A stretch of 32,000 nt of DNA from Candidatus Brocadia sp. (lineage in GTDB: Bacteria; Planctomycetota; Brocadiia; Brocadiales; Brocadiaceae). The stretch spans positions 3,690,001 to 3,722,000 of the forward strand of contig CP091279.1 of assembly GCA_021650915.1 (NCBI GenBank). The letters are read 5' to 3'. Within the stretch, counting starts at the first letter, position 1. Each line of letters starts with the position of its first letter. This document shows, one piece after another, positions 3,065 to 15,528 of this stretch. A program made the position numbers and the translations under genes. The notes below the pieces were generated by a model. That model saw only the letters and a program-made list of their open reading frames with translations, was not told where the DNA came from and made no database searches.

Positions 3065-3210
3065 GGTAACAATTTAGTTTTTTGAAAAAGTAGGGGCGAA
3101 GCATTTGCCTAATTGGGTATGCATGCATTTATGCCGATTGCAGCAAATGCTTCGCCCCTACCCTGGGTGGTAAATATTGCTATTATTGGGGTTTTTTAAA
3201 AAACTAAATT
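3065..3210. repeat. Family-1 MITE-like hairpin element, long variant
   Basis: Outer inverted repeats are AATTTAGTTTTTTGAAAAA (3071-3089) and TTTTTTAAAAAACTAAATT (3192-3210). Inner arms are GTAGGGGCGAAGCATTTGCC (3090-3109) and AGCAAATGCTTCGCCCCTAC (3142-3161), which are complementary at 19 of 20 positions. Confidence 0.85.
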
Positions 3211-8900: not shown

Positions 8901-9052
8901 GGTAACCATTTGGTTTTTTGAAAAGGTAGGGGCGAAGCATTTGCCTGCTTGTGGTGTGAATACATTTATGCCAATTTATGGCAAATGCTTCGCCCCTACA
9001 CCGTGCGGAAACATCGTTATTATTGCCATTTTTCAAAAAACTAAAGTGTTAC
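8901..9052. repeat. Family-1 MITE-like hairpin element, long variant
   Basis: Outer ends are GGTAACCATTTGGTTTTTTGAAAAG and TTTTTCAAAAAACTAAAGTGTTAC. The inner arms are perfect 20-nt complements: GTAGGGGCGAAGCATTTGCC (8926-8945) and GGCAAATGCTTCGCCCCTAC (8980-8999). Confidence 0.9.
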
Positions 9053-9055
9053 AAA

Positions 9056-9262
9056 TCTTTTTTTTGCAAGTTTTTTCGTAACCCTATCTATCCCTTATCA
9101 GAAGGCGCCGTTTATTGATAAGAGAAGGATTGCTTCGCTGTCGCTCGCAATGACAACGTACCGCATGTCATCAAAGACATAGCCAGTGTCATTGCGAGGG
9201 TCTTGTCCGAAGCAATCTCCCGCTTTCACAAGGGGGAAGTGGTTGCGGCTGTGCCGCGCTAT
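9056..9262 (-). repeat. Composite repeat C, inverted copy (outer-right end truncated against the family-1 element)
   Basis: The reverse complement reads CATAGCGCGGCACAGCCGCAACC...GAAAGCGGGAGATTGCTTCGG...GTCATTGCGAGCGACAGCGAAGCAATC..., colinear with 3232-3452. It explains track ORF 9098..9427. Confidence 0.85.
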
Positions 9263-9281
9263 GCTATACTCAAGATGCTCG

Positions 9282-9382
9282 TAAAATGTGAATTTTAAAT
9301 TGATAATAAGGTGGCATGGACAAACTCTGTTTGTCCGTGTTGAACTCCTATAAATCACAAATTGTAAGCCTATGGAGTATAT
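9282..9382 (+). repeat. Module-A repeat (101 bp), copy 2
   Basis: 97 of 101 positions are identical to 2943-3043. The hairpin GGACAAAC-TCT-GTTTGTCC lies at 9318-9336. The copy sits just 3' of proB, in the opposite relative orientation. Confidence 0.9.
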
Positions 9383-9456
9383 AATCATGACCTCCCTTTG
9401 GGATGAAAGAGGCGCTATGTTGTTCACTCGTAGTGATTGTGAGCAGGGGTAAACGG

Positions 9457-10599
9457 TTATAAAATTACCATATTATTCCGGTGAATAACCTCGTCGTATG
9501 ATTTATACCCCAGAAGCTTAACGATATGAGAGGTGCTGCATCCCTTAATCCTTTCGATCTCTTTGGAAGAATAGTTTACCAGGCCGCGCGCAATAACGGT
9601 TCCGTTCTCCTTGCCGCAGATGGAGATGATGTCCCCTTTGTGAAACGTCCCTTCCACCGACACGACGCCTGAGGCAAGCAAACTCTTGCCCTTTTCCCTT
9701 AAGGCATGAATAGCTCCATCATCCACATAGATCTTTCCCTTTGGTTTTATGGTATAACCGATCCATCGTTTACGGCTCGTCATCTTCTCTTCTTTGGGGA
9801 GAAACAGGGTTCCGAGCGGTTTGCCTTGCACAATCTTTTTCAATACCCCCGTTGCCCTTCCGTTGGCAATAATTACGGCCTCTCCTGCATTTGTCACCAC
9901 GGATGCCGCCTCCAGCTTGGTCTGCATGCCGCCTATGCCCCTTTTGGTCTTGAAATCAAAGGCCAGTTGACGGATTTCATCCGAGACGTTTTCAACCAGG
10001 GGAATAACGGATGGCTTGCTTTTCCCGGCAGGAAACGCATCGTATAGCCCGTCAACGGAAGAGAGGATGATAAGCAACTCCGCATTCAGCAGATTCGTTA
10101 CCAGGGCTGAGAGTGCGTCATTATCGCCAAACTTGATTTCATCCACGGAAATCGTATCATTTTCATTGACCACGGGGATGGCCTTGAGCTGAAAGAGCGT
10201 ATGAATCGTATTGCAGGTATTTAAGTATCTCTGCCGGTCCTCAAAGTCTTCGCGGGTCAGCAGTATCTGGGCCGCATGGTATCCGTGCACCTTAAAGCAA
10301 TCGTCATACATGCTGATCAATTTGCTTTGCCCCACTGCAGCAACCGCCTGCAATTCAGGCAGTGTCGCAGGTCTTTTCTCAATGCCAAGCTCCCCCATCC
10401 CGGAACCAATGGCGCCCGAACTCACGACGACCACATGGTATCCCATCTTGTTTAATTCCACCGCCTGCCCGGCAAGGTTCCTGATCTGCTCTTTATCCAA
10501 ATAGCCGTCATCATTGGTCAGAACGCCGGTCCCTATCTTGACAACGATCTTTTTTACCCGCGACAGAATTTGCCTTCGAATGTCTTCCTTAGATTCCAT
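9457..10599 (-). CDS. proB: Glutamate 5-kinase with C-terminal PUA domain
   Basis: Motifs VVKIGTGVLT, VVVSSGAIGSG and KFGDNDALSA, plus a C-terminal PUA-like segment (GVVSVEGTFHKGDIISI). The start is set at MESKED (complement of 10597-10599). Confidence 0.9.
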   Translation of the reverse strand: MESKEDIRRQILSRVKKIVVKIGTGVLTNDDGYLDKEQIRNLAGQAVELNKMGYHVVVVSSGAIGSGMGELGIEKRPATLPELQAVAAVGQSKLISMYDDCFKVHGYHAAQILLTREDFEDRQRYLNTCNTIHTLFQLKAIPVVNENDTISVDEIKFGDNDALSALVTNLLNAELLIILSSVDGLYDAFPAGKSKPSVIPLVENVSDEIRQLAFDFKTKRGIGGMQTKLEAASVVTNAGEAVIIANGRATGVLKKIVQGKPLGTLFLPKEEKMTSRKRWIGYTIKPKGKIYVDDGAIHALREKGKSLLASGVVSVEGTFHKGDIISICGKENGTVIARGLVNYSSKEIERIKGCSTSHIVKLLGYKSYDEVIHRNNMVIL

Positions 10600-10692
10600 A
10601 GTTCTCTCTTTACCAGAATTTTCCCCTGGACTCGTCCATAAAATAATTATACCAGAATTCAATCTGAAATTCAGAAAAAGTCAAGAAATATT

Positions 10693-10727
10693 GTAACGCT
10701 TTAGTTTTTTGAAAAAGGAGGGGCGAA
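10693..10727. repeat. Family-1 element, truncated left end only
   Basis: GTAACGCTTTAGTTTTTTGAAAAAGGAGGGGCGAA matches the left TIR and the start of the core arm. The rest of the element is absent. Confidence 0.7.
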
Positions 10728-10944
10728 TTGATCGGGCGACTGGAAGGGCTGCACATTAAGACTGGATTTATCAAGGTGTATCGGTTAGAATACGCATCCA
10801 GGGATACCGTAATCGGTCAGATGAAAAAGGCGAATATTGATGACGGCCATGCATTTATTGTCTAAACGGAGATATACCATCGGTTCTGATAGCCAAACGG
10901 CGACTGTTTACCCTGCCGCACATGCAAATTTACCCCATCCATTG

Positions 10945-10994
10945 AGAACCTCCCTGAAAAATCACTCATTGAAGGTGTTTTTGGGGGAGGTTCT
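10945..10994. other. 10-bp inverted repeat in the putative CRISPR leader
   Basis: AGAACCTCCC (10945-10954) and GGGAGGTTCT (10985-10994) are perfect complements separated by 30 nt. The structure ends 50 nt before the first CRISPR repeat. Its function is unknown. Confidence 0.4.
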
Positions 10995-11044
10995 AAATAT
11001 TGTCAATGTAACATATCAGCAAATAAAGACTTGTAAAGTGAAGA

Positions 11045-11820
11045 GTCTGAAAGGACATTCCTGCCGGTAGGAACTGAAACATATGCGACGCGTGCTGGTA
11101 GTACGCGCCGTGTCTGAAAGGACATTCCTGCCGGTAGGAACTGAAACTATTTTCTTTTCCATTTCCGTCTCCTCCGCTTAGTCTGAAAGGACATTCCTGC
11201 CGGTAGGAACTGAAACTTACTTCGCGTGGAAGATTTCCAGGATGCGGGTCTGAAAGGACATTCCTGCCGGTAGGAACTGAAACAAGGCGTGCTCCCACGC
11301 GACGGCGGCACTGGGTCTGAAAGGACATTCCTGCCGGTAGGAACTGAAACTTATTTTGGTCTTGCGCCGCAACACAAGTATGTCTGAAAGGACATTCCTG
11401 CCGGTAGGAACTGAAACCCAGATTTGCGCCGATGTCGCCTACCATTGCTGTCTGAAAGGACATTCCTGCCGGTAGGAACTGAAACATTGATACTGGGAGG
11501 CTCGAAACCAGCCTTTTAGTCTGAAAGGACATTCCTGCCGGTAGGAACTGAAACCTTTTTCATGATCTGAGCGTCGTGGGCCCTTGTCTGAAAGGACATT
11601 CCTGCCGGTAGGAACTGAAACAGTTCTCATCTTTCTCCTCCTTCCCGCCTTCGTCTGAAAGGACATTCCTGCCGGTAGGAACTGAAACTAGCCGAGCCGG
11701 CCTTCTTCTGCTGCCTTGTCTGAAAGGACATTCCTGCCGGTAGGAACTGAAACAGACGTAAAAAAAACCTCAGCCTTCTCGACGAGTCTGAAAGGACATT
11801 CCTGCCGGTAGGAACTGAAA
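11045..11820 (+). CRISPR. CRISPR array, 12 identical 36-nt repeats and 11 spacers (29-33 nt)
   Basis: The repeat GTCTGAAAGGACATTCCTGCCGGTAGGAACTGAAAC starts at 11045, 11112, 11181, 11248, 11315, 11382, 11450, 11519, 11586, 11653, 11718 and 11785. All copies are identical when read by hand, and all spacers are unique. The plus orientation is inferred from the 3' end ACTGAAAC, which resembles the ATTGAAA(C/G) tag, and from the small hairpin TTCCT-GCCGGT-AGGAA just 5' of it. Confidence 0.95.
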
Positions 11821-12125
11821 CCGTAAGGAGAGGAGAAGGACGAGGGACGAAAGACGAGAGAGGAGAGAGGAGGGGACATTTCGGGCGGGCGGGAAAATCC
11901 CGAAGGGATGATATGATTATAGGAAAAAATGCACCACGATATTCATCCCCGCAGGAGTGAAATATCGGTAAAAGAACGATACCATGCCACCTTGTTTATC
12001 ATTATCAGTTTCAATATTTACCGATCGTGAACCCTTTTGCGTGTAACGTGCAGGATTCTGTGTTAAGATAGTAAGATATGAGATAAATTCTGGAAGGTTC
12101 GTTTACCCGTTGGCAAGCCAAAAAC

Positions 12126-13250
12126 ATGCAAAACAGGACATTCCATATCTTCCTATTTCTGTGCATTGCGGCCATTGGTGGTTACGCAACCATTGCGCAG
12201 GTGCTGCTGATCCGTGAATTCCTGAACGTCTTTATGGCAACGCACTCTGTCTGGGTATCGTATTTGGCGCATGGTTTCTGGGTATTGCCGCAGGCGCCGT
12301 TACGGGCGCAAAGATTGAGCGGACGTTTCACCGCGCCTTCACTGTTTTTACCGTCACGTTGTTCGTTCTCTGCTTTCTGCAGCCCGTGCAAATCTTTTTT
12401 ATACGCGGGGTGCGGGGTGTTTTGCGTGTTGGGACTGGTGAGTATCTTTCCCTGATACCCCTGCTCCTTACCGCGTTTGGAGTAATCGTCCCATTTAGTT
12501 TTATCATCGGTTTTATCTTCCCGTTTTCGTCAAAGGCGGTGAGAATCGCCTCCACTGACCACGATGGCGACGGCCATGCCCCTGCTTCAGAGCGGAAATT
12601 GCAGAATTCGGATTCCTTATCCAATCCGCAATGCTCAATCCGAAATCAAAAATCAGAGATCCAAGATGGAGATACCCGTGATGCCGCGGTGGATATCGGA
12701 GCGGTTTACGTCGTTGAATCCATAGGAAGTCTTGTCGGGGGGCTGGTATTCTCATTTTTCATGGCATCGAGATTCCACCCGTTTACAATCATGACGCTTT
12801 TGAATGCAGGGATGTTTGCCCTTTTGACCGCTCTCCTGCTCCTGCTGGATCACCATGCTGATGATCTTTGAAGGGGTTATTGGATGCTATGCCCTTGTTC
12901 TGCCGTTTTTAATTCATATATTGTCTTCTTATTCCTTCGCGGCAGAAACCGGCTTAACCTGTTTGATTGGTATCGCAGGGATATTGACGGGCGTAGAGTT
13001 TCCCCTGGTCAATAAGATACTCACGGAACATCATCAGGATATTGCGATATCTGCCGGGGCTACAAACAGCGCCGATCACATCGGCGCCTTTCTGGGAGCA
13101 ATATTGACCGGGGTAATCTGTATCCCGCTTTTTGGCATCTCCGGCACGCGCCTGATCCTGGCGGCGCTCAATATAGCGAGTCTCATCCTAATCGCCTTTT
13201 CCATCGTATATCCTGGCCGTAGCAAAGCCGCAACCAATTCTCCGTTGTGA
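12126..13250 (+). pseudogene. Polytopic membrane protein resembling the N-terminal membrane domain of fused spermidine-synthase-like proteins; reading frame broken twice
   Basis: Three overlapping track ORFs (12126..12455, 12359..12871, 12855..13250) sit in frames 0, 2 and 0. The sense continues across 12231-12235 only with a -1 shift (LLIREFLNVF / YGNALCLGIVFGAWFLGIAAGA). It returns to frame 0 somewhere in 12828-12871. Motifs IGAVYVVESIGSLVGG and NSADHIGAFLGAILTG resemble the Y-x-x-(N/D)-x-x-G-A TM pattern of that family. No catalytic domain follows. Confidence 0.45.
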
Positions 13251-13449
13251 GAAAGCGGGAGATTGCTTCGGACAAGACCCTCGCAATGACACTGGCTATG
13301 TCCCTGATGACATAACGCAGCACAGCCGTAACCAAAAAAGTTCAACCACAAAGATTACAAAAAAAAGGAAGTTTTTGCAGAGTAATACTATACGGTATGT
13401 TGTCGAAGCGAGGCAGTTCTTCTCTTATAAATAAACGGCGCCTTCTGAT
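13251..13449 (+). repeat. Repeat C, rearranged copy: inner hairpin element split by an inserted outer element
   Basis: The inner-left half (13251-13313) and a degenerate inner-right half (13393-13449) flank AACGCAGCACAGCCGTAACC...AGTAATACTATA (13314-13392). That inserted sequence corresponds to the two ends of the outer element with no inner part. Confidence 0.75.
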
Positions 13450-13496
13450 CGCGGGCAAGGGACTTTGATTGCCCACAAGAGCTTCCCGTTAGCAGT

Positions 13497-14243
13497 TTAA
13501 TCCTTGGAGCGTATAAATAAGTCGTGGAGTTTCTGGCATATCTCCTTGACGACGGTGTTGTTGCAGAGAGAGAGAGCCCACGGAATTTCTTCTCCTTCAA
13601 AGGGTTCCGTGAATCCCGGCATTGCCTCGTCGGCAAAACAATGTACTTTGTTATGCCGTATTGACAAGGTTTGGATACGCTCTTCCCTGCTGGGGAGCAT
13701 TTCTACAGGGATGATGCCGTTCCACTCCTTTGAAAAACCTTCAACGATAAAAAGCCTGCCGCGCTTATCAAACAATTGGTACCACACGTGAGCAAAGGAG
13801 ATCGACTCATCTTTGTTTATCACCCAACCCCATACAATATCCCCGTCGATATTTAATTCGGATAGTTCGGAAAAGAACAGGAATACAGAGTCTTCGCAAT
13901 CGCCCTTTTTCCTTTGCCTCGTTTCTGTGGGTGTCTGCCAGTAATCTGTCTTTGGCGGTTCAGACCGGTAGTCAATATCAAAGGCTATTTTTTTATATGC
14001 CTCGTAAATGTGCTCGCCGTCATGGAAGGTCTCAGTACACCATTTTTTATACTTTGGGTTATCAGGAATACCGGCTCCGGGAGGAGCGGAAGGTATGAGA
14101 GGCGTTATTGACAAACTGTCCTCACATGGCTTGTAGCCCTTTCCCGTAAGAAACAGGTCGGCATACGAAACATCAGCAAATACCGCGGAACAATACAGAG
14201 TTGATAAACCAAGATAAATTATGGCTGCAAAGAAGTATCTCAT
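13497..14243 (-). CDS. Secreted transglutaminase-like cysteine peptidase family protein
   Basis: Signal peptide MRYFFAAIIYLGLSTLYCSAVFA. KGDCEDSVFLFFSEL matches the G-D-C-E-D nucleophile motif of periplasmic transglutaminase-like cysteine proteinases. A downstream FAHVWYQL (His) and an Asp follow. Confidence 0.5.
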   Translation of the reverse strand: MRYFFAAIIYLGLSTLYCSAVFADVSYADLFLTGKGYKPCEDSLSITPLIPSAPPGAGIPDNPKYKKWCTETFHDGEHIYEAYKKIAFDIDYRSEPPKTDYWQTPTETRQRKKGDCEDSVFLFFSELSELNIDGDIVWGWVINKDESISFAHVWYQLFDKRGRLFIVEGFSKEWNGIIPVEMLPSREERIQTLSIRHNKVHCFADEAMPGFTEPFEGEEIPWALSLCNNTVVKEICQKLHDLFIRSKD

Positions 14244-14303
14244 AGGTAATGATTATCCGGACCAGAAGATCAGCTATTATAACGCTCCGGCAAAATGGAA
14301 ACA

Positions 14304-14388
14304 GATTGCTCGCAATGACAACGCACGGTATGGCATCAAAGACATAGCCACTGTCATTGCGAGGGTCTTGTCCGAAGCAATCTCCCGC
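14304..14388 (-). repeat. Inner hairpin element of repeat C, solo copy with internal deletion
   Basis: GATTGCTCGCAATGACAACG...CACTGTCATTGCGAGGGTCTTGTCCGAAGCAATCTCCCGC is colinear with 9128-9235. It lacks the outer-element ends. Confidence 0.8.
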
Positions 14389-14511
14389 ATGAATAATTGA
14401 CGATATTGAATGAAACGGTATACTTTACAGCAACGAAACCTTTCTTGCCTCTATGGAAGATCTCAGATGGTTCGGGTGACCCGCCTGGAGCGGATCACCC
14501 GAATGAAACCC

Positions 14512-15528
14512 TTACAGCGCCTTCAGGAATTCAACCAGGTCCTGCATCTCCTGCTGAGTCAAATGCGATGTCCTTCCATGCATGTCCTTCTCATTCACCG
14601 TGTTGTTGATCGTGTCTATCAACGTCCGGGCTCCCCCGTCATGGAAATACGTGCCCGATGCATAAATATCCCTCAACGTCGGCGTATCAAACTCCTTCAC
14701 CAGGTCCAGCCCGATGATCGGCGTGTCACTCTCCTCGCCATAGGGATCTTCCCCTGCCTCTAATGCCTTCAGGTTAAAGACCTTTCCCGGCGTTGAACGG
14801 AAACCCTTTACCCCAACACGGCCCGTCCCCACGTCATGGGTCTGCGCATCGCTAAAAAGCGCCTTCGGATCACTTGCATCACCCGGATGGCACTCCACAC
14901 ATCCCACATTCGGATCGTTGAATATCTTCTCGCCCCTCTTCTGCGCATCCGTCAGCGAACCATCCGGATTCCTGAACGGACTTCCCGTGAATTCCAGCGC
15001 ACGGATGTAGCAGATCAACGCCTCCAACCTCAATGGCGAAAAGTTCTCACTCCTGAACACAAACCCAGGGTCTCTTCCGCACACCCTGTCCAGCGAACTC
15101 GTTGCTCCCACGATCTCATCCGGATGTCCCGTGAATCCCTCATGACGGAACGGCGGCAAATACCTTCCCCCACGGATGTACTTCGTGTTCTTCCAGCTTC
15201 CCCATCCCTCATCACCAAGGTCCCAGATCAATCCCGTCGTCTGGCCCCTCTCGTAATGACAGCTCGCGCATGCATACTCACCCTGAAGACCCCAGGATGC
15301 ATCGTTAAACTGGAACTGCCCGTACCGCACCAGCTCGCTCTTGTACGGTGAGTGCTTTACCCGGTAATGCACCTCCGGCACCGTAAGCGGTTCTGCCCGC
15401 GGAAGCGGCTCCCACTCCGGCCCCGTCTGGATCGTCGCCACTACCTGCGGCGTACCGGCCATCAACTGGCCAGTTCCGATAAGTCCTAGCGCTACAACTA
15501 AGCCTGCTTTTAGTTTCCTTGTAAACAT
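14512..15528 (-). CDS. Di-heme cytochrome c peroxidase / MauG family protein
   Basis: A signal peptide, then two CXXCH motifs (CASCH, CVECH). FDTPTLRDIYASGTYFHDGGARTL matches the conserved P-x-L-R-N / Y-F-H-D-G region of bacterial CCPs. Confidence 0.7.
   Translation of the reverse strand: MFTRKLKAGLVVALGLIGTGQLMAGTPQVVATIQTGPEWEPLPRAEPLTVPEVHYRVKHSPYKSELVRYGQFQFNDASWGLQGEYACASCHYERGQTTGLIWDLGDEGWGSWKNTKYIRGGRYLPPFRHEGFTGHPDEIVGATSSLDRVCGRDPGFVFRSENFSPLRLEALICYIRALEFTGSPFRNPDGSLTDAQKRGEKIFNDPNVGCVECHPGDASDPKALFSDAQTHDVGTGRVGVKGFRSTPGKVFNLKALEAGEDPYGEESDTPIIGLDLVKEFDTPTLRDIYASGTYFHDGGARTLIDTINNTVNEKDMHGRTSHLTQQEMQDLVEFLKAL

Follow-up and report, generated by a model that had tools for sequence, protein, structure and literature searches.

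Within the window, a stretch of 32,000 nucleotides from the chromosome of a Candidatus Brocadia species (one contig, C1, of 4.05 Mb, 100% complete), a CRISPR array stands apart from any cas operon. The question it raises is which system makes use of it, and how it came to be located there. All 12 exact copies of the 36-nt repeat described in the earlier note were recovered, as were its 11 spacers (29-33 nt, all different); the array ends at 11821 and not at 11820. Regular identical repeats and unique spacers of similar length, flanked by a leader on one side and a degenerate trailer on the opposite side, identify it as a CRISPR array. It is indeed located between proB (TIGR01027) and a broken membrane-protein gene, the latter being aminopropyltransferase-like. 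An Rfam scan of window positions 9000-14500 returned no match. That no cas gene is found in its vicinity stands as far as intact genes are concerned: none was recognised in the ORF list of the window, for which the families of 16 ORFs were examined, and genome-wide searches for Cas1, RAMP and Cas6 yielded no match near C1:3.70 Mb. It does not stand for remnants, as the 3' half of a cas2 gene is found 180 bp upstream of the array.

Table. Features of the array, of its partner locus and of related units in other genomes (plain numbers, window positions; C1, source chromosome).
Feature	Position	Strand	Description
Left stub (35 bp) of ~151-bp MITE	10693..10727	+	97% identical to intact MITE ends
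cas2 3' half (~codons 46-94)	10717..10865	+	stop codon 10863-10865; without start codon and N-terminal half
CRISPR leader	10866..11044	+	3 differences from main-locus leader, none in last 69 bp
CRISPR array	11045..11821	+	12 identical repeats, 11 unique spacers; leader on left
Repeat starts	11045, 11112, 11181, 11248, 11315, 11382, 11450, 11519, 11586, 11653, 11718, 11786
Trailer	11822..11882	+	old terminal spacer and degenerate-repeat start; homologous to main trailer C1:949394-949300
Internal fragment of ~267-bp MITE family	11894..11991	+	derived from C1:947492-947395 copy in main locus
Intact cas2 of main locus	C1:950852-951136		TIGR01573/PF09827
Cas6-RT-Cas1 fusion	C1:944045-947095		1016 aa; Cas6+RVT_1+Cas1, YADD motif
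G005 satellite (C51)			cas2 codons 55-94; intact MITE at junction; 2 repeats
G011 satellite (C79)			starts at leader; 3 repeats
G044 satellite			starts at leader; 1 repeat
G017 second unit			in tandem; starts at cas2 codon 57

Elsewhere in the chromosome, 17 further exact copies of the repeat occur at C1:949559-950672, together with two degenerate ones. As a whole, this main array (C1:949288-950672) lies on the minus strand, 2.75 Mb away on the linear map and 1.30 Mb around the circle. In transcription order, the main locus encompasses cmr1, cmr2 (Cas10), cmr3, cmr4, cmr5, cmr6, corA, a DHH phosphodiesterase gene (NrN-like), cas2, the leader and the array; beyond the array follow three small ORFs, a second, truncated cas2, a MITE and a Cas6-RT-Cas1 fusion. 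The genes cmr1-4 and cmr6 were typed by TIGR01894, 02577, 01888, 02580 and 01898, Cmr3 scoring below the TIGR cut-off but above that of Pfam, while cmr5 was assigned by its position, its size and a 74% identical orthologue in the related genome G005. With cmr1-6, Cas10/Cmr2 included, all in open frames, the locus is of type III-B. Its corA adjoins the phosphodiesterase gene (PADLOC CorA 2e-103, DHH_CorA 6.5e-19), and the palm motif of Cmr2 (L002:2557-4242) is GGED instead of GGDD, a feature conserved in the G005 orthologue. The best PDB match of the fusion is Cas6-RT-Cas1 7KFT (E 8.6e-51); the glycine loop of its Cas6 domain is atypical, yet conserved in orthologues. A stand-alone Cas6 is encoded elsewhere, at C1:57062-58030. 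By eye, one of the three small ORFs looks PIN-like. Both in this chromosome (C1:947513) and in the main locus of another strain (L076:1-217, minus strand), the second cas2 copy breaks off at an identical base, in codon 64; it is interrupted by a MITE in the former and, as judged by eye, by the apparent 3' end of an antisense group II intron in the latter.

An array with no intact cas gene within 20 kb, whose repeat is identical to the 17 copies of a resident cas locus, belongs among the distant arrays, and that of the window is most probably a satellite served by the type III-B Cmr/CorA/NrN system of its own chromosome. The earlier note had considered that a remote cas locus might service the array in trans, an option supported by a III-B operon with identical repeat and leader; its alternative, an unrecognised partner, is not needed given that operon. 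The subtype, held there to be unassignable from the sequence, can be given as III-B through the repeat, and the array is, in the terms of that note, real but not novel, a canonical operon elsewhere carrying the identical repeat. That an unrecognised or class 2 effector encoded close by is the array's partner, or that another resident system (III-E gRAMP, I-C) uses it, is highly improbable. The arguments in favour are confined to the combination of short spacers and a 36-nt repeat and to the other systems that the genome contains; it is also known that one system may use the crRNAs of another (work cited in PMC7145637). However, no ORF of the window has the character of a single large class 2 effector, the neighbouring genes are housekeeping genes that are also neighbours in relatives, with no array between them, and the III-B locus is the source of the repeat, the leader and the trailer alike. 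The other arrays of the chromosome, namely I-C (982609-988692), III-E beside gRAMP (1978406-1979701) and an eroded III-D mini-array near 60000, possess unrelated repeats. A single diverged repeat of the III-B family is located at C1:1986945-1986980 (8 mismatches, stem intact, reverse orientation, without leader motif), between cas1 and cas2 of an array-less RT/cas1/cas2 module near the III-E locus.

The repeat does form the hairpin noted earlier, with a stem better described as 6 bp, including one G-U pair, closed by a 4-nt loop than as 5 bp with a 6-nt loop. This stem (repeat columns 14-19/24-29) is paired in 100% of 11 repeat variants, originating from Brocadiales, a deltaproteobacterium and a Nitrospiraceae genome. 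Two-sided changes are observed at three stem pairs, a count that stems from related sequences and does not represent a probability. From the end of the stem to the 3' end of the repeat there are ~8 nt, the usual arrangement for Cas6. Judged on sequence, the covariation fits Cas6-cut crRNAs, and the earlier guess of a Cas6-processed type I/III repeat agrees with the identical repeat of the III-B locus. About 50-100 bp upstream of the first repeat, the leader displays an inverted repeat of 9-10 bp (arms near 10946-10954 and 10986-10994), which is kept in all 11 aligned leaders (7 genomes, two families) and is a candidate integrase or host-factor site; a version of it is visible in a Nitrospiraceae leader. 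A search of the + strand for a sigma-70-like promoter found none; one may have been lost with the upstream part that was deleted.

The flanks of the satellite reveal its origin. On the left, window positions 10717-11044 are 97.6% identical to C1:951000-950673, with 8 differences in 328 bp: five in the cas2 part, one of them at the junction, and three in the leader. The cas2 remnant alone gives no HMM match, and it is by this DNA homology that it is identified. The MITE stub marks the left edge of the insertion and is joined to cas2 via a short shared purine run. On the right, the trailer is followed by the MITE fragment, to which the C1:947492 copy of the main locus is the closest of 42 other copies (91.8% identity, as compared to at most 88.8%); two diagnostic 14-15-mers are confined to this pair. 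Since the cas2, leader, array, trailer and MITE pieces are collinear and co-oriented, the satellite descends from at least 3.6 kb of the main locus: it is a copy of a stretch reaching at least from C1:951000 to 947395, cut to ~1.35 kb by deletions. In G005 and G011, the region upstream of proB is separated by 56 bp from the homology of the next gene, and the homology of the window to this empty site stops at 10692. As both relatives have the empty site, the ~1.35 kb (10693 to ~12050) represent an insertion in the source lineage; none of the relatives searched carries the repeat at proB.

Other scenarios were considered and set aside. The array is not the cargo of one intact MITE: a left end exists, but neither a right end nor a target duplication lies close by. 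Fission of one array into two is unlikely, each having its own leader and trailer. MITEs are abundant in the chromosome (79 paired copies on one count, 56 of which with 8-bp target duplications) and are plausible agents of flank erosion. The family exhibits 24-bp terminal inverted repeats, 8-bp target duplications and several different REP-like hairpin cores, in forms of 131-151, 267 and 350 bp, with window copies at 1510-1638, 3065-3210 and 8901-9052.

The gene downstream of the satellite is a pseudogene of a ~870-aa membrane aminopropyltransferase-like protein (window 12126-13250), with a frameshift near 12235 and ~1.47 kb deleted at 12829-12839. The insertion is not supported as the cause of the breakage, these lesions being internal to the gene. 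The G005 orthologue is an open frame of 877 codons, and that of G011 seems to be frameshifted too. Further downstream, a hydrazine synthase gamma subunit gene (window 14512-15528; NF052341, above cut-off) is apparently stand-alone, with repeat elements on both sides; no alpha or beta hydrazine synthase gene was recognised beside it. Together with the named relatives of the genome, this gene marks the source as an anammox bacterium of the genus Ca. Brocadia.

The main doubt bears on whether the satellite gained its spacers in place or arrived with them as part of another copy of the locus. In the latter case, the segment and its spacers would come from a second III-B acquisition from a related strain, the cas genes having since been lost and the array being silent or active in interference only. 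This route is among those listed for distant arrays (PMC7145637), and it would account for three observations: the main array and the satellite have no spacer in common; at three sites the satellite agrees with the main locus of another strain (L076) against that of its own chromosome; and of the four differences internal to cas2, three are synonymous, a pattern suggestive of an origin in a gene that was still intact. However, the absence of sharing is expected under either history, because spacer turnover in RT-linked arrays is very fast (PMC5513706). Furthermore, the heavy erosion of both flanks contrasts with 12 repeats without a single flaw and with leader-proximal DNA that has diverged less than the cas2 remnant, seven of the eight upstream differences falling outside the 156 bp that adjoin the first repeat. 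An import of this kind is thus considered unlikely, and it would alter the history and activity of the array, not its class. That the satellite is active or recently active, as proposed in the earlier note, is plausible.

Read on the opposite strand, satellite spacers 2 and 9 present a Shine-Dalgarno sequence followed by ATG. Two of 11 spacers with this pattern on the target strand correspond to p=0.013, in a test devised after seeing the spacers; for type III spacers as a whole, the count is 6 of 43, with 1.3 expected (p=0.0015, also post hoc). None of the 89 I-C spacers shows the pattern, and it is absent from the crRNA strand throughout. With the reserve due to a post hoc test, it fits mRNA-antisense crRNAs and the + orientation of the array, which is deduced from the leader/cas2 homology together with these spacers antisense to gene starts. 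Searches for the targets themselves found none. Against the own genome, the best satellite spacer matches (21-25) are the same as those of shuffled sequences, and BLAST against phages gave chance-level matches only (E 0.07 or worse). In IMG/VR, exact 23-24-mers of five satellite spacers are absent, as is one degenerate pattern built from main-array and III-E spacers. The repeat family was absent from the viral contigs searched, and a metagenome scan identified one contig, the main locus of a related strain with a single perfect repeat, the satellite being absent. RT-linked arrays typically harbor spacers lacking database matches (PMC5513706). To note, main III-B spacers 1 and 8 (C1:950140-950171 and 950606-950636) and III-E spacer 8 are antisense to three variants of one gene start, encoding M-x-WKGK... 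and without a match in IMG/VR; two RNA-targeting systems (III-B and III-E) appear to have met one diversifying invader family.

The repeat family is present in 7 of the 61 genomes searched. Repeat and leader adjoin cas2 and Cas6-RT-Cas1 in G005, G008, G012 and G017, and Cas6-RT-Cas1 in G011. Separate leader-repeat units, without a III-B gene homologue in the 7-16 kb fetched, are found in G005, G011 and G044; together with the tandem unit of G017, they indicate that satellites recur in Brocadiales at different sites (Table). Their left ends fall within cas2 codons 46-57 in three units (the window, G005 and G017) and at the leader in two (G011 and G044). It might be imagined that a dedicated route, either MITE-assisted copying or 5'-truncated reverse transcription by RT-Cas1 itself, repeatedly seeds the leader-repeat end of Brocadiales Cas6-RT-Cas1 loci, the satellites then growing in trans. 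This is improbable: ordinary duplication, followed by deletion up to the part under selection, explains the recurrent left ends as well, and the copy in the window originally extended at least 2 kb beyond its array. In G008 (L072:10770-11955), three degenerate repeats are separated by inserts of 554-559 bp with four-helix-bundle-like cassettes, not spacers, and a deltaproteobacterial MAG (L080:192-983) harbors a 12-repeat array of this repeat family with no III-B homologue in 7 kb on the leader side.

As a satellite of the III-B system, the array would operate as follows. Its + strand would be transcribed, and the Cas6 domain of Cas6-RT-Cas1 would cut the transcript at the foot of the 6-bp stem, so that each crRNA carries the usual 5' tag of 8 nt. 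The resulting crRNAs would be loaded into Cmr1-6 complexes binding and cutting invader mRNA. By analogy with Bacteroides fragilis, the Cmr complex probably signals to CorA through SAM-AMP (PMC10600005). Cas6-RT-Cas1/Cas2 may add spacers in trans at the conserved leader, from RNA or DNA (by analogy with PMC8102632). The satellite would thereby serve as a second memory bank for the same III-B immune system. The significance of the array is modest, as it is placed in a known class, of which it is an example with a traceable origin. The main and satellite arrays form a natural pair for studying the effect of cas proximity on expression or on RNA-spacer capture, and the satellite spacers may help to trace viruses, still unknown, that infect anammox bacteria, organisms important in wastewater treatment.

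Distant arrays represent ~23% of bacterial arrays, with a mean of 13 repeats, and 75% of the typed ones match a resident system (PMC7145637). Like those used in trans that were described by Bernheim et al. (PMC7145637), the satellite is located more than 20 kb from cas genes, has a repeat matching a resident system and is shorter than the in-locus array (12 versus 17 repeats); it differs in that its origin can be traced through the cas2 remnant, the trailer and a specific MITE copy. A literature search for Brocadia type III-B returned no paper. The partner locus resembles the B. fragilis type III-B Cmr/CorA/NrN system (Chi et al. 2023, PMC10600005) in its cmr1-6, corA and DHH phosphodiesterase genes, and it possesses both RT-Cas1 and cas2, which occur in some CorA-1 loci (PMC10600005). 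In contrast to the B. fragilis system, its Cas6 is fused to RT-Cas1 and its Cmr2 bears GGED, SAM-AMP signalling being proposed here by analogy. With the Cas6-RT-Cas1/Cas2 of Thiomicrospira and Marinomonas (7KFT/7KFU; PMC8102632), it shares the triple fusion and the type III context and, as may be assumed by analogy, leader-repeat-directed integration; the satellite spacers are also without database matches, as in PMC5513706. The repeat family is different, and one Brocadia fusion would serve two arrays 1.3 Mb apart. In each feature examined, the satellite conforms to the distant-array class; it is an ordinary member of that class and not a new system, and its partner system is of a described kind.
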